This document shows, piece by piece, positions 2,944 to 29,103 of a stretch of 34,588 bases of DNA. The stretch lies in the UHGV virus genome UHGV-0091505. The stretch is one strand, 5' to 3'. This DNA comes from a virus. A program made the position numbers and the translations under genes. Under the pieces are notes generated by a model. That model saw only the letters and a program-made list of their open reading frames with translations. It was not told the origin of the DNA and ran no database searches. The first letter of the stretch is position 1; each line of letters begins with the position of its first letter.

Positions 2944-3084
2944 TTATGACAAGCCTATGTACCCTGCTACACCAGATAATATCAAAATAGCTGCAACAGC
3001 AAATTCGCCATCGTCAATGATACATTTACGGTTCATAACGCCAAGTGCAACAAGCGCAAACACAACAAGAATAAAAGCAATCAT
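2944..3084 (-). CDS. small hydrophobic two-segment membrane protein (46 aa), not in the supplied ORF track
   Basis: Hand translation: MIAFILVVFALVALGVMNRKCIIDDGEFAVAAILILSGVAGYIGLS; ATG 10 nt after the stop of the upstream 824-aa gene, same strand. Confidence 0.3.
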   Translation of the reverse strand: MIAFILVVFALVALGVMNRKCIIDDGEFAVAAILILSGVAGYIGLS

Positions 3085-3093
3085 TTCTCATCC

Positions 3094-5568
3094 TTATTGC
3101 GGAGTGACATCCTGTGGTCGCCACCAGTATGTCTGGTTAAACTCTTTCTTCGAACGTTGCTCCATTTTACGCAAATAACCTGGTGAAAAATACTCCTGCA
3201 TCTGGTTAAAGATCATGTGATCGAGAGCCGCCTTTAAGTACCAGAGATTCGCACCTGGCATCAGACCTTTCCCCAGCTTAACCAGATCACCACCAGTCTG
3301 CTCATTCTTCCCTTCCACAGCATTTAACGGTATGCCCTGAGCAATCTTCACTACGTCATCAACCAGGCCAGCTACCGGGCCAAGCATCGACGCCAGCGCG
3401 CCGCTTCCGTACCTAGTGTGATCTGACAATAAAAAGTCACCGTAAAGGCCAAGACCACCACCTTTCAGTAGAGCACCAAGCCAAAATTTAGCAGCATCTT
3501 CTCCTGTCATCTCGCGAGGATTACGACCAGACGCAAGGTCGTTAAGTTGCTGCGACAAAGCGCCAAGAATGGTCGTACTGGCAATAAACGTCGCAATATA
3601 TGCCGCACGCCCACCAGCAGACGGCATACCCATAGCGCGTGACCAGTGACGCATAACCACCGAGATAGGGAACGATTTAAACAGGAAAACACTTCTCGTT
3701 AATTCACCTTTCCATGTCCCACGCTGAATACCAGAACCGGTTATCAGTTGCTCACGTGCGCCAGGTGTAATAACAGCCATATCAACTTCTTCAGTTACGG
3801 CACCGAGCAGTTTACGCATTGCCTCAAATTTCACGCGTTCAGGCTCACCAAGATGTTTAACTACTGAATCAGGGATACGCATAATGCTTTCCGGTGTTAG
3901 CATCGTATTATTACCGTTCCCCCAGTCCTCCTGTTGCGCCAGCTTCCATACACTCCAGTCTGTGTCAGTAATCCCTTTACTTTTCAGGATACGAAAATCA
4001 GAGTCATCGAGGCTACGAAGGTCTGGTGTCCGTGACACTACTTCTCCCAGGCTTCCCATCATGGTTACGCCATAGGCGCGCTTGTGCGCATCTGACCATG
4101 CTGTAAGCCCACTGGCACGCATTACCGCCGTTGCCGCCCAACGAGACACAGACGGCCCCATATTATCCATCGCCCAGCGGTTAACGCTGCCAAGTAGAGA
4201 TTCCATCGCCAGACCAGCGCGGCGCGCCCGCGCAAGCTCAGTACGGTTCGTTGGGTCCATAGCTTCAAGCTGGTTGCGGAATAACTGGTTCATTGGAAGG
4301 TTGGTCACCTTCGCAGACAGATACATGGTTCCAAGATCAGAGAACGATGACAGCAACGCGGATCCGAGTCTGCTGGCAACCAGCCAGTTGCGGATATTGT
4401 CAGACCATCGCGCGATGTGAGGATTCGCAACAGGCTGTGTCTTTCCGGAAATAAAGTTGTACAGATTCTCTGTGTTGTTCGCCAGCCGCTCGACTTTACC
4501 GGTTTTACTCGGGTTAGCTGTTGCCGTTTCTGCCTTCACCTGATCAAGAAGGGAACGGAAAACATGATCGGGGTTTGGGCCATATGTTTCCACCAGAGCA
4601 ATATCTTTACTGATCCCTTCCAGGTGACCGACCATGATTTCCCATAGAGAGCGATCGCCATAAAGTTGCTGATATTGCAGATAGGAATCTGCATCTTTGA
4701 AATGTATCTGTCGTGATGCATTACCACGGTTAGCACGTGCACCGGAAATTCGCATTCCGGTATCAGTAAGCTTATTCAGCCCACCAGTAGCGATCGTGTT
4801 ATAAGCCTCTCCAAGAAATGCAGACAACTCGACATCGTTCATCAGTTGTCCATCGGCTCGGGTATAATATTTGCGATCCAGCTTACCTATAACATCGCTA
4901 ACCCATTTATCTTTTGATACCGCCCCAACCTTTCCCATAGAATGATGTTGAGGGATCCCCCAGTTTTCGAGATAGCCAATGTCCCCACCAGCATCATTAA
5001 ACCGGCGGCGCAGTAGCTCTGTCACTTCTCTCCACGCCTTAGCACCTTTTCTTGCTTTAGCATTGCCAGTATTTTGCCCTCGCATTTCATATACCAGGTC
5101 ACGCACGCCCGCTTCATCTTCAAACAGACCAAAAAAGCGAGGATCAACTGCTTCGAATGCCTCCTGCAATTGACTCAATGCATAATCACGGGTGGCTTTT
5201 GTTCTGGATTCAACAGAGAGGAAATTCGATTTACCGTCTGCATTAAAAGCAATAGTACGGTTAAGAGCGCCAAGTTTCCCATCAGCCCCTTGATAGCTAT
5301 TGATAAATTTATCCAATCTCTGACGTGCGGCTATAGTGAGGGCCACACGACGTTTCTTTAATACCGCTTCTCGCTGTAATTCTTCAGATGCCAATTGTGC
5401 TGCACGATATAGCCGCTCTGATTCGGAAAGTTGTCTCCATGACATCGGGTCATCACGAGCAATGGAGCGCATATTTCGATAAATGCGGTCTTCAATGTTC
5501 TGTATTTCTCGCGCCGTTAACGTGCGCTGCGCCGCCTGCTGAACCGCTTGTATACATTCCTGTCTCAT
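3094..5568 (-). CDS. internal virion / ejection protein (large, gp16-like position)
   Basis: 824-aa ORF in the podovirus core-protein block between the tail tubular genes and the tail fibre; glycine-rich hydrophobic stretch near C-terminus; assignment by position and size. Confidence 0.5.
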   Translation of the reverse strand: MRQECIQAVQQAAQRTLTAREIQNIEDRIYRNMRSIARDDPMSWRQLSESERLYRAAQLASEELQREAVLKKRRVALTIAARQRLDKFINSYQGADGKLGALNRTIAFNADGKSNFLSVESRTKATRDYALSQLQEAFEAVDPRFFGLFEDEAGVRDLVYEMRGQNTGNAKARKGAKAWREVTELLRRRFNDAGGDIGYLENWGIPQHHSMGKVGAVSKDKWVSDVIGKLDRKYYTRADGQLMNDVELSAFLGEAYNTIATGGLNKLTDTGMRISGARANRGNASRQIHFKDADSYLQYQQLYGDRSLWEIMVGHLEGISKDIALVETYGPNPDHVFRSLLDQVKAETATANPSKTGKVERLANNTENLYNFISGKTQPVANPHIARWSDNIRNWLVASRLGSALLSSFSDLGTMYLSAKVTNLPMNQLFRNQLEAMDPTNRTELARARRAGLAMESLLGSVNRWAMDNMGPSVSRWAATAVMRASGLTAWSDAHKRAYGVTMMGSLGEVVSRTPDLRSLDDSDFRILKSKGITDTDWSVWKLAQQEDWGNGNNTMLTPESIMRIPDSVVKHLGEPERVKFEAMRKLLGAVTEEVDMAVITPGAREQLITGSGIQRGTWKGELTRSVFLFKSFPISVVMRHWSRAMGMPSAGGRAAYIATFIASTTILGALSQQLNDLASGRNPREMTGEDAAKFWLGALLKGGGLGLYGDFLLSDHTRYGSGALASMLGPVAGLVDDVVKIAQGIPLNAVEGKNEQTGGDLVKLGKGLMPGANLWYLKAALDHMIFNQMQEYFSPGYLRKMEQRSKKEFNQTYWWRPQDVTPQ

Positions 5569-16889: not shown

Positions 16890-17182
16890 TCCTGTTCACT
16901 GGCCTCTTTGGCCATCTTCAAATACTGTTCAGGGCAATGCGCCATAACGCGCTGAAACAGTTCCAGCGCCAGATTGCGTTGCCCCTCATTAAATGCCATT
17001 GCCATAGCGTCCATCGGTGAGATAGCGGAAAACACCAGGCCTTTCTCCAGCACAGACCAGACAACGCGACGCCCCTGTTCACTGCTCATGACAAAGCGAA
17101 TGTCATCAATTTCACGCTGTGCCATGTCACGTTGCTTACGGGCGTTTTCTTCTTTCAGTTGATCATCTTCGTATTCTGTCAT
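16886..17182 (-). CDS. hypothetical protein (between portal and scaffold)
   Basis: 98-aa ORF translationally coupled to the portal and scaffold genes. Confidence 0.45.
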   Translation of the reverse strand: MTEYEDDQLKEENARKQRDMAQREIDDIRFVMSSEQGRRVVWSVLEKGLVFSAISPMDAMAMAFNEGQRNLALELFQRVMAHCPEQYLKMAKEASEQE

Positions 17183-18858
17183 TGTGATTGCCCACCCTGA
17201 CCACTAACTGCATTCGCCATAGCTGACAAAACACTCGGATCAGAAGTTTTAGCTTCGCTTAGCGTCTTGGCACCCTGTGCCGCCGCCATCCCCATCGCCA
17301 TCATTTGTTGCTGCTGTTGCTGCTGTGCCCGTTGCTGGCGAGCCTGCTCAACCTGTTCCTGCGGAACAATGATGGTTGGAGACACTCCGGACATATCAGC
17401 GAATGCATCGATCGCCTGATCAACGTTGAGTTTGTCGAGAGCTTCTGGTTTCGCTTGCGCAAGTTGACCAATGAAGTTGACCGTAGACGCCAGACTGGAC
17501 AGGCCGATAGACTTCTGCGCCTGAGCCATGACGGAAATGTATTCGACCTTCAGTGGCATACCCTCCATCGCGTCAGGCGGTGGCGGCAGCATGTTTTTAC
17601 GCACCATCATCGAGAAAGCGCGGTCAATGAGAGGATTAAGACATTCGTCGTTCAGACGCTCCAGAACCGGCCCCAACATCAGAAGTTTTTCTTCTTTCAT
17701 TTCGATCACCGCTTCAACAGGCATCGAGCGGGTATTGATGTTCTGCAACATCATGAACAGATCGACAAAGTAGGCGCTGTTAATGATTTGACGAGTGTCC
17801 TGAATGTCTGCCACCAAATCTGCTGTACTGGGGTTAACCAGATAAGCAGGCCTGAAACCATCCTGACCAGTAATCTGATCGATATACGTGATGTCGCCAG
17901 GAAGAAGGGATGCGCGCTGATTCTTGAGGGAAGTCGGAGCAACCATCGGCGGATTGGTGGCTTTATCAATCAACTGTGACTTACGCTTCTGGAGAAGCTG
18001 CAATGCCTTAACAGGTCCAAGCGCCAGCATACCCGGGCATGATGATCCATAAACATCTTCGCCGTTAACTTCCCAGCGCGGAGCCATAATTGGAAACTCA
18101 TCGAATCCGGACTCACGCAACAACTTGTCGTTATCGCCACCAACCTCGTAATAAACCGATTTGAATGGCTTGTTCTTGCTATCCAGCTTCGATGTATCGC
18201 GGTCAATGTTCGGGTAAACCGAATGCATCACTTCAATCCACTTCTCGTAGGTGCCGCTTTCCCACATACTTTTTACGGATTCGCTGACGTTATTTAGCCC
18301 GAACTCCTGAACAAGCTGACGAACAGTCATAGAGAACTTGCGAAAACAGGTGTCCACACTGCCACGAGGTGAGTTAGCCAGGTAGTAACTGCCTATCGGG
18401 AATGGCATTGTGCGAATGATGTCCTCGTCATCCTCCAGCACTGCCATTGCACCAGTGCTGTATGTGCCGAGGCTTCCGTATAACTGCGGCAGCGACTGAT
18501 AGAGATTCGACTTATTGAACATATCGTTCATGCGGTTCTGCACCGCCTCAAGCCACAACTTAACAGGGCCATAATCCATCATTTCAGGATCTGGCGTAGC
18601 CAGGCGAAACCACGGACGCGCGGGGCTTGTGATGCCTGACATCATGCCGCTGGCGAGAGTGCGCGCCGCCATAGTCCCGGTCGAATCAATAATGCGTGTA
18701 TTGCGTCGATCGTTACGGTTGACCTCAGAAGTCAGAAAGCGGGAACCACGCGGGTTGATGTAATCACTCAACTCGCGCCAGTGCGGCTCGAACGACTGAC
18801 GCTCGCTTTCAAGTTGTGCGAACTGTTTGTTCAATCGCTCTTTAGTTGTTTCCGCCAT
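17179..18858 (-). CDS. portal protein
   Basis: 559 aa, position immediately after the terminase block, Gln-rich C-terminal tail; SD CGGAGTCATTGA before ATG. Confidence 0.8.
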   Translation of the reverse strand: MAETTKERLNKQFAQLESERQSFEPHWRELSDYINPRGSRFLTSEVNRNDRRNTRIIDSTGTMAARTLASGMMSGITSPARPWFRLATPDPEMMDYGPVKLWLEAVQNRMNDMFNKSNLYQSLPQLYGSLGTYSTGAMAVLEDDEDIIRTMPFPIGSYYLANSPRGSVDTCFRKFSMTVRQLVQEFGLNNVSESVKSMWESGTYEKWIEVMHSVYPNIDRDTSKLDSKNKPFKSVYYEVGGDNDKLLRESGFDEFPIMAPRWEVNGEDVYGSSCPGMLALGPVKALQLLQKRKSQLIDKATNPPMVAPTSLKNQRASLLPGDITYIDQITGQDGFRPAYLVNPSTADLVADIQDTRQIINSAYFVDLFMMLQNINTRSMPVEAVIEMKEEKLLMLGPVLERLNDECLNPLIDRAFSMMVRKNMLPPPPDAMEGMPLKVEYISVMAQAQKSIGLSSLASTVNFIGQLAQAKPEALDKLNVDQAIDAFADMSGVSPTIIVPQEQVEQARQQRAQQQQQQQMMAMGMAAAQGAKTLSEAKTSDPSVLSAMANAVSGQGGQSQ

Positions 18859-18872
18859 TTCAATGACTCCGG

Positions 18873-19079
18873 TTACTGACCAAGCAGCGTTTTACCGCTG
18901 GTATTAGCGGTTGATGTGTCGCCCTGAGAACCGGTAAGCAGCGTAGAACTACGACCAGCAGCAGCGCGACGGCGACGTGTTTCTTCGTCGCGGGCATCAA
19001 CAACTGCGGCATCCTGCTCCTGTGGTGCTGCCTGAACTTCTGGTGTTGCAGGCACTGATGGTGAGCTACCCATGCACAT
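18873..19079 (-). CDS. small hypothetical protein upstream of portal
   Basis: 68-aa polar Arg-rich ORF; its start is preceded by the same CGGAGTCATTGA sequence found before the portal ATG. Confidence 0.35.
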   Translation of the reverse strand: MCMGSSPSVPATPEVQAAPQEQDAAVVDARDEETRRRRAAAGRSSTLLTGSQGDTSTANTSGKTLLGQ

Positions 19080-19169
19080 ATCAATGACTCCGTACGCAAT
19101 TAAATTATTACCAATTTAACCATATATGATTTATTTATCGTAGATAGTTGACATTTAACGCACAAATTA

Positions 19170-19184
19170 TTACCTTTCAGGTAG
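19170..19184. promoter_or_regulatory. operator-like site TTACCTTTCAGGTAG
   Basis: TTACC-N5-GGTAG; 14/14 identical to the core of the site at 1531-1545; a TTGACA hexamer lies 16 nt upstream. Confidence 0.3.
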
Positions 19185-19506
19185 CAAAGGGTTCATTCCG
19201 GTTATTAACCTGACTGGCTTGTCGTTAAATTGAACAGGTGGAGTGAGCTTTTATTTTGAGCAGTACGGCGTATGGCACATGCGTCGTTAGCGGTCTGGTG
19301 ACGTTAAAGGGGTTACCTTTTCCCCTAGCTCAGGCAACAAACCAGGTAGCCGGAATGTGCAAGCCCCGTTCATATCGTCGGACCGAGGACTCACCACCCT
19401 GGCGATTCGGTGTGACGCCTCGGAAGAGACGAGGGTACAACGATGAGAGCATTTATGGAGCCGCGACAAAGTGTGGCGCCTTAACAGGCTAAGTGCTCTC
19501 AGCGTT

Positions 19507-19583
19507 GTGGCATTAGCTCAGTTGGACAGAGCAACCGCCTTCTAAGCGGTTGGTCGCAGGTTCGAATCCTGCATGCCACGCCA
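19507..19583 (+). tRNA. tRNA-Arg (anticodon UCU), argU-like
   Basis: 77 nt cloverleaf folded by hand: acceptor GTGGCAT/ATGCCAC, D-arm GCTC/GAGC, anticodon stem ACCGC/GCGGT with loop CTTCTAA, T-arm GCAGG-TTCGAAT-CCTGC, discriminator G and encoded CCA. Confidence 0.85.
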
Positions 19584-19785
19584 GAATCACGCCTAAGGAC
19601 CGTGATGCCAGAAGTTCCAGGGGCTTGGCGGTGATGGTTTCCCTTGAAGGACTATCACCGCCCTTTTTACAGCAGGACGCCATTGCGATGACTTCATGCT
19701 GTAAACCAGTACAGCCACGGAAGGCATAACTCATTGCTTCCAGTTCGCCCGGTTCGCCGGGCATTTTTTAAGGTGAGATTAGACT

Positions 19786-20157
19786 ATGAGTGACAAAGAC
19801 ATTGAATCTGAAATTCAGGCTAAAGGTTTAGCCGCGCCGCGCGTTACGCCAGACCATATCGAGAGCATTATTGCTCAGGAGGCATATTTCACAGCAGAAG
19901 ATGGTGTCTTTGGCGTAGCCATAAAAGCGAAACATACTGGCGAAGAGGTAAACTACCAGCCGCACGAATCACTTTCTCTGCTGACGTTCTGCGTTCTGGT
20001 GCTGCGCAACGGCTTCACCGTCACCGGAGAGAGCGCCTGTGCAAGCCCGGAAAACTTTGATGCGGAAATTGGTCGGAAGATTGCCCGGCAGAATGCTGTA
20101 AACAAAATCTGGATGCTTGAAGGTTACTTGCTGAAGCAGAAGTTAAGCGAGCAATAA
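19786..20157 (+). CDS. Gp49-like phage protein (N4 gp49 / Sf6 gp66-type, function unknown)
   Basis: 123-aa ORF with SD AAGGTGAG; C-terminal pattern GESACASPENFDAEIGRKIARQNAVNKIWMLEGY recalled as this family; opposite strand to flanking terminase and portal. Confidence 0.5.
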   Translation: MSDKDIESEIQAKGLAAPRVTPDHIESIIAQEAYFTAEDGVFGVAIKAKHTGEEVNYQPHESLSLLTFCVLVLRNGFTVTGESACASPENFDAEIGRKIARQNAVNKIWMLEGYLLKQKLSEQ

Positions 20158-20161
20158 CACC

Positions 20162-20173
20162 GTGACATGTCAC
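20162..20173. repeat. perfect 12-bp palindrome GTGACATGTCAC (copy 2 of 3)
   Basis: 5 nt after the Gp49-like stop, in the convergent gap with terL; followed by a weak hairpin and a T-rich run. Confidence 0.6.
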
Positions 20174-20247
20174 AAACAGCCAGCTCATAGGGTGGCTTTG
20201 TTTTATCCTCACCAGAGGATATCAGCAGCATTATCCCCTCCAGCGGA

Positions 20248-21723
20248 TTAAGCATAGGGATCGTAATCTGTGATGGCCTTGCCTTGCTGGTTCTGCTGCC
20301 CGGGAATTCGCAGACGCTTCGACACAGGGAAAGCAAACGTCAGCAGTAGCGCATCGCCTTTACCCGGCGAACGCCCAAGACGCTCTTTGATATCTTCCTT
20401 CGGTTCGATAACGATTTTACCGTCCACACGAACTTTGTACTCTGCCGCCGACAGGTCGTCTGCAGTTTCCTGGTCATCCAGCATGCCGCCCAGCCTCAGC
20501 CATGTCTTACATGAGTTGAACATCTCCCCACGCTTGTTAAGCATCTGCGGGTCAGTGGACGCACCGCCGAACGGAACAAGTTGCCATGTACGTCCCCAGC
20601 CATCACCGATTGACTTCAAACCGGTTCCGTAACCGAAGTCGATGAACACCGCGTCAGCCTGATACTGGTCTTCAAAGTCAGCGATACGCTTCGCCATAAT
20701 CAGATCGTCGGTAGTCTTGTTGCCAGTCCACAGCACCTTACTGTGTAGCCCCTGCCGCAGGTATATCACCGCGTCATCAACGCCTGAATATGCCGGGTCA
20801 ACACCGATTATCACCGGAGCATGCGCCACCTGCGCAGCGGTCACCACCCGTTTCATTGCCTCATCAGTAAGACCGGTAGGGATAAACTGCAATTCAGATG
20901 CATCAGGGAATATGCCGCGCACACGGATTTTAACGAAGTCGCTGTCTTCCCCGTAGTCATCAACCCATTTCTGCAACTGCTGTTTGTTAGTGCCTTCCAC
21001 CGTCCGGCTGTCAATCTGCGCAGTTTTCCAGCGGTGTTTATACTTGCGGAAACATTCACGGAATCGCCCGGTGTTACGTGTAGGGTTTCCGAACGCCACC
21101 CAGATAATCTCAGTGTCTTCGTCCGTAAGCGCACCCTCAGCAACTTCCCACACCAGATCCGCAATGTTCGACGCTTCATCGAATACCACGATGATGCGTT
21201 TGCGCTCGTTGTGTAGTCCGGCGAATGCCTCAGTGTTGTGCTCAGACCAGGGGATTGCGTCAGCTCGCCACCGCTTGTCGTGCCCAGGGTCATTGCTGTA
21301 CATCGCGGTAGCGGTACAGGTAAACCAGTCTTTCGTGATAGCAAGGTTCGACCACTTGATAATTTCCGGCCAGGTCTTCGTTCGTAGCTGGTTGTCGGTG
21401 TTGGCAGTCACCACGACCTTACAATCCTCGCAAGTGGACATGCCCCAGTTGATCAGCATTGAGATGAATGCGGATTTACCAATACCGTGACCAGAAGCGC
21501 GTGCCAGCATAAGCGGCTGATAGCGCGTCTCTGGATTCTGCAGGTGATCACGTATCTCTCGGAACGCATCAGCCTGCCACTGACGTGGGCCGGTGGCATG
21601 TGCCAGTTCAGTCCCCTCTTCCCCCCACGGGAACGCATAGAGGGCATAGCCAAGCGGATCGTGAGTGAACCCTGCAATATCCTCGATCAACTGCTCTTCA
21701 GGAGATAACGCTGTATCTGTCAC
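20248..21723 (-). CDS. terminase large subunit
   Basis: 491 aa; Walker A-like ARASGHGIGKS, ATPase plus nuclease-sized domains; directly downstream of terS with overlapping stop/start. Confidence 0.9.
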   Translation of the reverse strand: MTDTALSPEEQLIEDIAGFTHDPLGYALYAFPWGEEGTELAHATGPRQWQADAFREIRDHLQNPETRYQPLMLARASGHGIGKSAFISMLINWGMSTCEDCKVVVTANTDNQLRTKTWPEIIKWSNLAITKDWFTCTATAMYSNDPGHDKRWRADAIPWSEHNTEAFAGLHNERKRIIVVFDEASNIADLVWEVAEGALTDEDTEIIWVAFGNPTRNTGRFRECFRKYKHRWKTAQIDSRTVEGTNKQQLQKWVDDYGEDSDFVKIRVRGIFPDASELQFIPTGLTDEAMKRVVTAAQVAHAPVIIGVDPAYSGVDDAVIYLRQGLHSKVLWTGNKTTDDLIMAKRIADFEDQYQADAVFIDFGYGTGLKSIGDGWGRTWQLVPFGGASTDPQMLNKRGEMFNSCKTWLRLGGMLDDQETADDLSAAEYKVRVDGKIVIEPKEDIKERLGRSPGKGDALLLTFAFPVSKRLRIPGQQNQQGKAITDYDPYA

Positions 21724-22316
21724 TGATTACCATCCTGACGTTCTTTGAGTCGCTTCCTGGCTGCCGCTATGCGATCAGCAATTGTCACATTCACATTAAC
21801 ATCCAAGCGTTCTTTGAATGCATTGACATCGACGTGCTTGCCAATCAGTTCGAGGTTCTTCACCTTGTCAGGCCATTTAATTTTTTTGAGGATTGTCTCT
21901 ATCGAATCCTCGTTCATGTTCATGATGGTCGATGACAGATCAAAGCCACTAAGCGTAGTGCGCCAGATTTTCGGCCACTCACGGATTGGTTTAAGGCTCC
22001 CATCGTCGTTGAGGATGTCGATCACGTCCATCTGGTCGATCTCCACCAGGCGCATGAGAACGTAATCAGCACTGACACGCATTCGTTTGTTGCGCTCCTC
22101 CATCAGCTCGGCAATCCGTTTCTGAATGCGTTCATCGCGCATCATGACACTGGCTTTAACTGCCGCTGTATTTGGGGAGAATCCTGCGTTAATCGCTGCC
22201 TGAGTCTGGTTTTCAGGCGTTTTGATGTATGACTGGCAATAAGCCTCCTGCATTGCTGTGAGCGGCTTAAATTGCGTTGATTTGCGTTTATAGGTTTTAG
22301 GTTCAGCAGGCATCAT
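21720..22316 (-). CDS. terminase small subunit
   Basis: Probable start at the ATG pair 22316/22313 (MMPAEPK..); the longer track ORF extends through an operator repeat translating to TITTTVTITTVV; DNA-binding type N-terminus. Confidence 0.8.
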   Translation of the reverse strand: MMPAEPKTYKRKSTQFKPLTAMQEAYCQSYIKTPENQTQAAINAGFSPNTAAVKASVMMRDERIQKRIAELMEERNKRMRVSADYVLMRLVEIDQMDVIDILNDDGSLKPIREWPKIWRTTLSGFDLSSTIMNMNEDSIETILKKIKWPDKVKNLELIGKHVDVNAFKERLDVNVNVTIADRIAAARKRLKERQDGNQ

Positions 22317-22333
22317 AACCACCGTGGTAATAG

Positions 22334-22348
22334 TTACCGTTGTGGTAA
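22334..22348. promoter_or_regulatory. operator palindrome TTACCGTTGTGGTAA upstream of terS
   Basis: Perfect TTACC-N5-GGTAA 18 nt upstream of the terS start; preceded on the minus strand by TACTAT (-10-like). Confidence 0.4.
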
Positions 22349-25921: not shown

Positions 25922-25998
25922 TTACCCCTGAGGTAATTAAAAACCACATAAGACACTAAATCAATAGAGTTTAGAATATTTTGTTACCCAACAGGTAA
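25922..25998 (-). promoter_or_regulatory. operator-flanked promoter (minus strand TTGATT-17 nt-TTTAAT) between the P-like gene and the nin-like block
   Basis: Two perfect palindromes TTACCCCTGAGGTAA (25922-25936) and TTACCCAACAGGTAA (25984-25998) bracket a -35/-10 pair (plus-strand 25959-25964 and 25936-25941); same architecture as the pL-like promoter. Confidence 0.45.
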
Positions 25999-28266: not shown

Positions 28267-28329
28267 TCACCCATAAGGTAACAAAAATCAAGGATAGTTA
28301 CCTATGGGGTGCATTTACCTGTTGGGTAA
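28267..28329. promoter_or_regulatory. OR-like operator region (three sites) with divergent promoters
   Basis: TCACCCATAAGGTAA (28267-28281), TTACCTATGGGGTGC (28298-28312) and perfect TTACCTGTTGGGTAA (28315-28329) between cro-like and repressor genes. Confidence 0.5.
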
Positions 28330-29026: not shown

Positions 29027-29103
29027 TTACCTGTCGGGTAATTTTTTTAACTCATATCTATTGACATCAAACCAAATACGAATAATCATTACCTCAACGG
29101 TAA
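29027..29103 (+). promoter_or_regulatory. pL-like promoter (TTGACA-16 nt-TAATCA) flanked by two operator palindromes
   Basis: TTACCTGTCGGGTAA (29027-29041), -35 29061-29066, -10 29083-29088, TTACCTCAACGGTAA (29089-29103). Confidence 0.55.

Follow-up and report, generated by a model that had tools for sequence, protein, structure and literature searches.

A conserved structured RNA ahead of the tRNA-Arg and Acb4-family gene of a phiV10-like prophage: a possible antiterminator leader

UHGV virus genome UHGV-0091505 was analysed as one stretch of 34,588 nucleotides (nt), here called the window, which is by its sequence a phiV10-like prophage. Between its terL gene and its gp3-like and portal genes, a transfer RNA (tRNA) gene for arginine and a small gene of the Acb4 family lie on the plus strand, directed, as the first-pass annotation of the window had described, against the minus-strand genes terS, terL, gp3-like and portal. 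The locus raises two questions: what is the stretch of about 250 nt that precedes the tRNA, and how is a gene that stands directly behind two intrinsic terminators expressed? The stretch (19265-19506, +; ~245 nt including its terminal stem) is very probably a real and previously undescribed RNA. Its role is more tentative, and the reading that we favour, with a probability of roughly 0.4, is that of a cis-acting antiterminator leader comparable to the put RNA of phage HK022.

The structured RNA and where it is found

The element was characterised from 263 copies, which were clustered at 94% identity into 84 clusters, 82 representatives of which were aligned. Its core (19265-19434, +) comprises four nested helices, mapped onto the window from the alignment as P1 (19266-70/19282-86, +), P2 (19290-97/19343-50, +), P3 (19386-89/19397-19400, +) and P4 (19418-22/19430-34, +), together with one supported pseudoknot, PK2 (19392-95/19409-12, +). 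Across the 82 sequences, 98.1% of the cells in these helices and the pseudoknot hold standard pairs. Changes on both sides were found in 13 of the 31 pairs (152 cells), a result that none of 500 shuffles equalled, and pairing fell to 25-46% in controls with slid partners. Examples are pair 48-74 in helix P1 (A-U in 46 sequences, G-C in 32), pair 197-209 in P3 (C-G in 67, G-C in 13), pair 231-242 in P4 (C-G in 61, G-C in 13) and pair 202-222 in PK2 (C-G in 77, A-U in 4). The fold is present only on the plus strand, because its abundant G-U pairs would be mismatches on the other one. Its z-score is -3.5, and a covariance model built from the core gives one match in the window (137 bits, E=1e-41).

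A second pseudoknot, PK1 (19275-80/19355-60, +), is possible, in which GCACAU in the loop of helix P1 would pair with AUGUGC, both sides being invariant in the alignment. Covariation of this pair was sought in an independent set of metagenome sequences retrieved with the P3/PK2 motif, where the two motifs again proved almost invariant: both were exact in 98 of 115 sequences, 10 sequences were unscorable, and in the few variants the pair is broken or becomes a wobble.

The core is followed by a long terminal stem, D3 (19435-19508, +), which closes as ACAACG...CGUUGU in the minimum-free-energy fold and whose last two pairs use nucleotides 1 and 2 of the tRNA. Its base is conserved (ACAAC.../...GUUGU) and its tip is variable (73 to 382 nt); both ends close a stem of at least 12 base pairs (bp), with differing sequences, in 43 of 51 clusters. 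In SPN1S (L129) and in L084 the tips contain T-arm-like pieces, e.g. CTGGTTCAATTCCAG and GGTCCGTTCGATTCGGAC, that look like inserted tRNA fragments. The 3' strand of D3 was also compared with the boxA consensus recognised by NusB/NusE, GCUCUUUA(ACAA): it reads UGCUCUCAG in the window and UGCUCUUUC in many relatives, base-paired in the stem, and is the boxA-like UGCUCUUU in many other copies. In two clusters, L185 and L238, D3 is replaced just after P4 by a short hairpin and then an exact rrn-type boxA, GCTCTTTAACAA. An RfaH ops site was considered as well, since the invariant GGUAGCCGGAAUGUGC contains an ops-core-like GGTAGC, and was rejected: about 8 of 12 positions agree by eye and the C3 position fails.

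In Rfam 15, nothing but the tRNA overlaps 19265-19506 at E<=10, and six diverse loci leave the element unmatched at E<=0.5. The first-pass annotation had taken the stretch for non-coding sequence, possibly a leader or the remnant of a tRNA. It is indeed non-coding: a 78-amino-acid (aa) open reading frame (ORF) on the plus strand and 60- and 83-aa ORFs on the minus strand lack Pfam matches, and a protein-coding role is further contradicted by 1-nt indels and compensatory pair changes among relatives. The remnant has to be given up, since ARAGORN and Rfam find a single tRNA, the T-arm-like pieces are confined to the variable D3 tips of some relatives, and the stretch forms a conserved structured RNA family of its own.

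That the element is transcribed follows from published work on sRNA-17 of E. coli K1 RS218, which carries an mEp460-like prophage (Song et al., PMC7719688): the quantitative reverse-transcription polymerase chain reaction (qRT-PCR) amplicon of that study runs from the first bases of the element into sRNA-17. When sRNA-17, whose length of 193 nt was derived by rapid amplification of cDNA ends, is positioned on mEp460 (L003) through its published primers, it falls at 4237-4430, on the element strand and downstream of the element. It starts at CGUUGUGG / CGTTGTGG, which closes the element, at the position held by the tRNA in the window, and stops at an intrinsic terminator; the 5' end implied by primers and length lies within ~4 nt of the RNase P cut expected in the window. 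sRNA-17 is a module downstream of the element and not the element itself, and the window has the tRNA in its place. In the same paper, the only one found that touches the element, the element is treated as a promoter: the "PsRNA-17" fragment, for which control by ArcA was reported, is the element itself (PMC7719688). The literature on put-like RNAs, the P1 ban leader and the phiV10 tRNA yielded no description of it.

The element is 83% identical in the lambdoid phages mEp460, cdtI, 2H10 and Ayreon and in Stx2c and Stx2a phages, and over its first 165 nt it shares 84-96% identity with P1, P7, D6 and SJ46. By blastn, 2154 of 5426 complete E. coli genomes contain a match, near full length in 1472 of them. 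The element thus occurs in 27-40% of complete E. coli genomes, in P1, which is among the most closely annotated phages, and in Stx phages, and has no Rfam family. An exact 19-mer of it is found in Kosakonia, Citrobacter, Klebsiella, Enterobacter, Kluyvera, Buttiauxella, Phytobacter and Erwinia dacicola genomes. Among the matches listed, no feature is annotated for the element itself, the overlapping features being the adjacent tRNA-Arg and one CRISPR (clustered regularly interspaced short palindromic repeats) array. In E. coli strain 2012C-4502 (match H165), the array holds 33 nt identical to the part with helices P1 and P2, 19281-19313 of the window. Finally, Tyrion (L127, ~2972-3360), a Uetakevirus, has an sRNA-17-type module (GTGAATGCGCAGG..., with terminator GGTACCAG...CTGGTACC) where the window has the tRNA-Arg, so the element and its 3' module move between podophages and lambdoid phages.

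Terminators, promoter and cargo of the unit

Two strong plus-strand terminators, which the first-pass annotation had overlooked, separate the tRNA from the small gene. The first intrinsic terminator, T1 (19627-19668, +), has a 14-bp stem followed by T5 (dG -22 kcal/mol); its stem sequences differ in relatives yet still pair. The second, T2 (19747-19769, +), GCCCGG-UUCG-CCGGGC followed by T6, abuts the ribosome-binding site of the small gene, and its stem covaries (GCCCGG/CCGGGC versus GCCCAC/GTGGGC). Between them lies a conserved spacer (19664-19746, +), TTTACA...CGCCATTGCGATGAC...GCTGTAAACC and then a hairpin GGAAG...CUUCC, which is ~75-82% identical in Salmonella, Klebsiella and Enterobacter relatives and in epsilon15. 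A leader peptide in this spacer (MTSCCKP...) was rejected, its frame, stop and downstream sequence being unconserved across 22 variants; the spacer may contain an atypical promoter or a site bound by a protein. Loci retrieved through the spacer motif alone carry at least two of three element-core motifs upstream in 55 of 59 cases.

The T-run of T2 ends at 19769, the Shine-Dalgarno sequence AAGGTGAG occupies 19770-77 and the ATG lies at 19786, which leaves no space for a promoter in between. The junction GCCCGG-TTCG-CCGGGC-A-T7-AAGGTGA-N5-8-ATG stays constant while the ORF behind it is swapped, T2-TAAGGTGA being retained ahead of unrelated ORFs. A promoter scan found no consensus promoter between T1 and the gene, or before the first leftward ORF of mEp460. 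With a strong hairpin defined as dG <= -15, at least one strong same-strand terminator separates the core from the first co-oriented ORF in 58 of the 66 contexts with a recognisable first ORF, and in most contexts the co-oriented ORF behind the terminators has little or no room for a promoter of its own. The same 66 contexts contain 74 strong hairpins on the element strand versus 12 on the opposite one.

Upstream of the element, a candidate sigma-70 promoter can be read from the sequence (19148-19176, +), made up of TTGACA (19148-19153), 17 nt and TACCTT (19171-19176). TTGACA-17-TACCTT recurs upstream of the element in SPN1S, epsilon15, L146, L149 and L181. A palindrome of the pattern TTACC-N5-GGTAR, TTACCTTTCAGGTAG (19170-19184), overlaps the -10 hexamer; both the TTGACA hexamer and the operator-like site reported earlier are thus in place. 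A weaker alternative promoter, TTGAAC, 16 nt and TATTTT (19230-19257, +), would start transcription at the 5' end of the element and is the best upstream match in promoter scoring, with 8/12, a value that is not significant alone.

In the window, TTACC-N5-GGTAR gives 25 strand-matches at 14 positions, ~10 of which are near-palindromic sites, against 1.8 matches expected by chance. The TTACC-N5-GGTAA sites, at 1531-1545, 1911-1925, 19170-19184, 22316-22348, 25922-25998, 28267-28329 and 29027-29103, are always intergenic or regulatory and resemble a regulon of scattered operators such as that of P1 C1. At least two, with a third visible by eye, cluster in the divergent region at 28267-28329 beside a helix-turn-helix (HTH) regulator; others lie in the antirepressor region, and two are found just upstream of terS. 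The curated epsilon15 record labels the homologous site as a repressor site. Because the operator of the phage repressor overlaps its promoter, the cassette appears to be repressor-controlled, and its expression in the lysogen is unlikely. The earlier suggestion of rare-codon decoding during lysogeny or lytic growth is therefore to be divided: codon supply is plausible, its lysogenic half is not likely.

The tRNA itself (19507-19583, +) is the one that ARAGORN calls in the window, a tRNA-Arg with anticodon UCU (tct at position 35) and an encoded CCA, and it scores 73.3 bits with the Rfam tRNA model RF00005 (gathering score 29); the predictors bear out the well-formed, argU-like tRNA of the first-pass annotation. 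As read from the sequence, its D-loop, AGUUGGACA, places A at position 20, and C35 is present; A20 and C35 are identity elements for ArgRS. In the 37 ORFs of the window, AGA and AGG (AGR) amount to 9.7 per 1000 codons and 16% of Arg codons, about three times the textbook E. coli average of ~3-3.5 per 1000, which makes codon supply plausible. There is almost no AGR in the capsid, scaffold, portal and terL genes and many such codons in early genes and tail/injection genes, so that the tRNA, though a plausible source of decoding, would be dispensable for the most abundant proteins. It is also optional beside the element, which it adjoins in 9 of the 84 clusters. Where present, it always begins three bases into GTTGTGG, the motif that closes the element.

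The gene behind T2 (19786-20157, +) encodes 123 aa and matches PF13876 (Phage_gp49_66) with E=2.3e-35 and 121 bits, versus a cut-off of 27, over profile positions 1-82. The Gp49-family assignment of the first-pass annotation is thus secure, and the family has since acquired a function: PF13876 (N4 gp49 / Sf6 gp66) has been defined as the Acb4 family, with SPO1 Acb4 as its founder (bioRxiv 10.1101/2024.12.30.630793). SPO1 Acb4 is a tetrameric sponge for the cyclic dinucleotides 3'3'-cGAMP and cUA of the cyclic oligonucleotide-based antiphage signalling system (CBASS), and a panel of homologues was also active (bioRxiv 10.1101/2024.12.30.630793). The window protein belongs to the same family, but its direct similarity to SPO1 Acb4 is low: the match to the solved structure (PDB 9e4w) is weak (E=0.006) and confined to residues 66-108. 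By family membership, the gene is a candidate Acb4 anti-CBASS sponge.

Acb4-family genes are the cargo in 17 clusters. In other relatives the slot holds a Tad2-like gene (Klebsiella ST512-KPC3phi13.3 and L235) or a gene for an Acb2/Tad1-hairpin protein (L216), besides several other families that lack a Pfam match. Phage D6 has a Tad2-like gene behind the element and lacks the T1-T2 leader. With PADLOC the cargo proteins gave no defence-system match. Judged from these genes, the slot behind the element is a counter-defence slot. Whatever the mechanism of the RNA, the element marks a place where anti-defence genes are swapped in, and serves as a flag for new counter-defence proteins, several of the cargo families having no known function.

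What the element may do

The cassette is best explained as a single early transcription unit directed against the late operon, and the element as its antiterminator. The unit would be silent in the lysogen and switched on by infection or induction. RNase P would cut at 19506/19507 and release the tRNA, which would help to decode the AGA-rich early and tail genes of the phage. Like HK022 put RNA, the leader would act in cis on the polymerase transcribing it, so that only transcripts from the cassette promoter pass T1 and T2 and express the sponge, which in turn would soak up the cyclic-dinucleotide signals of CBASS. RNase P cleavage is compatible with this sequence of events because put activity needs no tethering of the RNA to the transcript.

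An antiterminator best accounts for three things: promoter-less ORFs behind strong terminators, the position of the element in the PL leader of N-less lambdoid phages, and the lack of a phage protein common to its hosts. In mEp460 the cI terminator comes first, then two TTGC-N7-GCAA palindromes like the ones found between cI and cro, and then the element, a position that corresponds, from the sequence arrangement, to PL/OL. No arginine-rich N-like motif was found in the first leftward ORF of mEp460, and the Stx2a example has no annotated N gene. In such N-less lambdoid and Stx phages, the same RNA would take the role of nutL/N or putL downstream of PL. A 2025 paper has proposed an unidentified put-like RNA for an N-less relative (PMC12315714). 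Homology with put itself is ruled out: the core covariance model has no match in the whole HK022 genome (best E=3.9), and antitermination is proposed for the element by likeness to put.

Several observations, together with that missing match, weigh against antitermination. The cassette promoter scores under the threshold of a consensus scan and is thus sub-consensus. In phage P1, where the core lies between trnI and ban in the C1-controlled ban operon and is unannotated among 535 features, D3 is absent and no terminator precedes ban; the D6-type copy keeps a D3-like stem, and no downstream terminator was detected there either. Read-through can therefore not be the full explanation of the element. 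In epsilon15 (L275 2560-2745, -), the element is reduced to helix P1 and half of P2 (35 bits) by a deletion that joins the remnant to the tail of T1 and has removed the rest of the element, any tRNA and the T1 stem, yet T2 and the intact Acb4-like gene p50 are kept. sRNA-17 has its published 3' end at the first terminator, which shows that termination takes place there (PMC7719688). Processive antitermination would, moreover, carry polymerase past the weak terminator behind the gene and on into terL, in antisense. Finally, processing sites flank the element (a tRNA 5' end in the window, a tRNA 3' end in P1), an arrangement that fits a released stand-alone RNA equally well.

The last point leads to the main rival, which we regard as possible though unlikely: a stand-alone stable RNA that acts in trans on a host or defence target, e.g. 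as a decoy or ribonucleoprotein component. It would be excised by tRNA-type processing from a small-RNA operon ended by T1, and the sponge gene would owe its expression to leaky read-through or to an unrecognised promoter within the conserved block that follows T1. The company that the element keeps speaks for such an RNA, as it is always co-transcribed with small RNAs: the tRNA-Arg here, sRNA-17 in mEp460, and trnI, tRNA-Asn, tRNA-Thr and a DicF-like region in P1. So do its ends, the 3' end coinciding with the 5' end of the tRNA in the window and lying within ~4 nt of that implied for sRNA-17, the 5' end standing 11 nt after a tRNA in P1 and D6. The P1 copies without a downstream terminator, the loss of element, tRNA and T1 as one block in epsilon15, and invariant loops and pseudoknots reminiscent of ribozymes or protein-bound RNAs point the same way. 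In the laboratory, CRISPR-interference knock-downs directed at the flanking P1 genes tciA, trnI and ban, though not at the element, gave non-essential scores (PMC10695390). Nevertheless, in no context does a terminator directly follow the element, and the three phage types share no conserved partner protein gene. A trans-acting RNA also leaves unexplained the promoter-less ORFs right behind strong terminators and the expression of the leftward operon in N-less lambdoid phages, for both of which antitermination provides a reason. As a separate observation on P1, the ban operon (L276) contains, right after Pban, the DicF-like region (769-870, 832-860) with its own terminator, and it holds three tRNAs, which makes it an early operon rich in RNAs.

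The view of the first-pass annotation, a cargo insertion with a rare-codon tRNA behind an inert leader or decayed tRNA of 250 nt, now appears improbable. The well-formed tRNA, the AGR share of Arg codons and the T-arm-like fragments in some D3 tips are in its favour. Against it stand 245 nt conserved with compensatory changes in three unrelated phage types, 75 of 84 clusters that lack an adjacent tRNA-Arg, and the failure of ARAGORN and Rfam to find a second tRNA; its "remnant" and "insertion" parts are already contradicted, the layout being common to the Uetakevirus relatives examined.

A shade less probable still is a riboswitch-like sensing leader, which would bind a small molecule made during infection or a host factor, conceivably an immune nucleotide, and switch read-through into the sponge genes on or off. 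The highly conserved pseudoknotted core is aptamer-like, terminators lie downstream, and three families of cyclic-nucleotide sponges occupy the cargo slot. The first terminator, however, lies ~120 nt past the element with the whole tRNA between them, which leaves no overlapping expression platform; the same RNA also stands ahead of unrelated genes (P1 ban, lambdoid leftward genes), and no Rfam riboswitch matches it even at E<=10. Least probable of all is a role at the DNA level, as a promoter with an ArcA site, assumed upstream of sRNA-17 in E. coli K1, or as another protein-binding site, since, although this very stretch served as 'PsRNA-17' with reported ArcA control, the GTTA-N-GTTA repeat falls in a portion that lacks conservation outside the E. 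coli variants, compensatory changes, G-U pairs and strand asymmetry are unexpected for a DNA site, and the authors' own qRT-PCR amplicon begins within the stretch (PMC7719688).

The antiterminator reading can be taken one step further, to a new class of regulatory RNA in phages: self-sufficient processive antiterminators unrelated to put, possibly responsive to an infection cue, which would allow swappable counter-defence genes (Acb4, Tad2-like, Acb2/Tad1-like) in Uetakeviruses to be expressed early and from a specific promoter and would drive the early leftward operon of N-less lambdoid and Stx phages, and which have gone unnoticed in P1 between trnI and ban. In this full form the proposal is doubtful. 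If the element is put-like, it would be a second, far more widespread RNA that reprograms RNA polymerase by itself, and it would explain the early leftward operon of N-less lambdoid phages, including Stx2 phages.

The cassette and its RNA among known systems

An insertion splitting terL from the portal gene had been considered unusual, a view that comparison with relatives overturns. phiV10 and the O157 typing phages 9 and 10 (Uetakevirus) match the segment 18860-20250 at 96% identity and share its gene order and orientation. An opposite-strand cassette between terL and gp3 is also present in SPN1S, Klebsiella ST512-KPC3phi13.3, Enterobacter Tyrion and Salmonella PAT1, and in shortened form in epsilon15. 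On this comparison it is a standard accessory cassette of phiV10/epsilon15-like phages, ancestral rather than inserted. On one side it is flanked by the 68-aa gp3-like gene (18873-19079, -) and the portal gene (17179-18858, -; PF12236), on the other by terL (20248-21723, -) and terS (from 21720, -). Between the converging acb4-like gene and terL, the palindrome and weak terminator that had been reported are present: the 12-bp palindrome GTGACATGTCAC (20161-20172) and a weak two-way terminator, a hairpin with a T-run (~20177-20203; dG ~-10 kcal/mol), together 20161-20203, where phiV10 annotates a terminator.

In the annotated Uetakevirus records examined, the 245-nt RNA is marked in none. Typing phages 9 and 10 have the tRNA-Arg annotated, and in phiV10 the PF13876 gene is phiV10p03; the phiV10 record has no tRNA and instead an 83-aa ORF call antisense to it, phiV10p04. 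Hypothetical proteins have been called opposite the tRNA (phiV10p04; 19513-19764, -, in the window) or opposite the structured RNA (mEp460_037), and phiV10p04 and mEp460_037 are probably mis-annotations.

The window further encodes an integrase, lambda-P-like and DnaT-like replication genes, the HTH regulator and a P1-type C4/isrK immunity RNA pair. The latter (1962-2143; isrK-like RNA, 63.8 bits; C4 antisense RNA, 79.5 bits) is located at the beginning of a Bro-N antirepressor ORF (2039-2878) and immediately before it, and is the arrangement of a P1-type immI module in a podophage. The same isrK/C4 pair is found in mEp460 and Stx2c phages.

Among known systems, HK022 putL/putR, a processive antiterminator RNA that acts in cis, is one of the closest to the element. 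Like these, the element follows the early promoter in N-less lambdoid phages and precedes terminators that have to be read through, in hosts that share no phage protein. The two differ in size and number, as put is ~70 nt long with two stem-loops and occurs at both PL and PR, whereas the element has 170-245 nt, four helices, a pseudoknot and a long terminal stem, and occurs once per phage. ROOL and GOLLD are large structured prophage RNAs of unknown function that are often found beside tRNA genes. The element resembles them in being prophage-borne, highly structured and often adjacent to a tRNA, and departs from them in having no Rfam match, in its much smaller size, in its Enterobacterales hosts and in its leader position before terminators and ORFs.

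The tRNA also has counterparts. The trnI, trnT and tRNA-Asn genes of P1 are likewise rare-codon tRNA genes in an early or accessory operon, with raised use of the cognate codons, and ileZ-argN-argO of Stx phages are phage-borne tRNA genes of a similar kind. Unlike these, the tRNA of the window directly continues, to the exact base, the 3' end of a structured RNA that is conserved. Both the tRNA and the Acb4-type gene belong to known kinds, but the leader RNA ahead of them does not.

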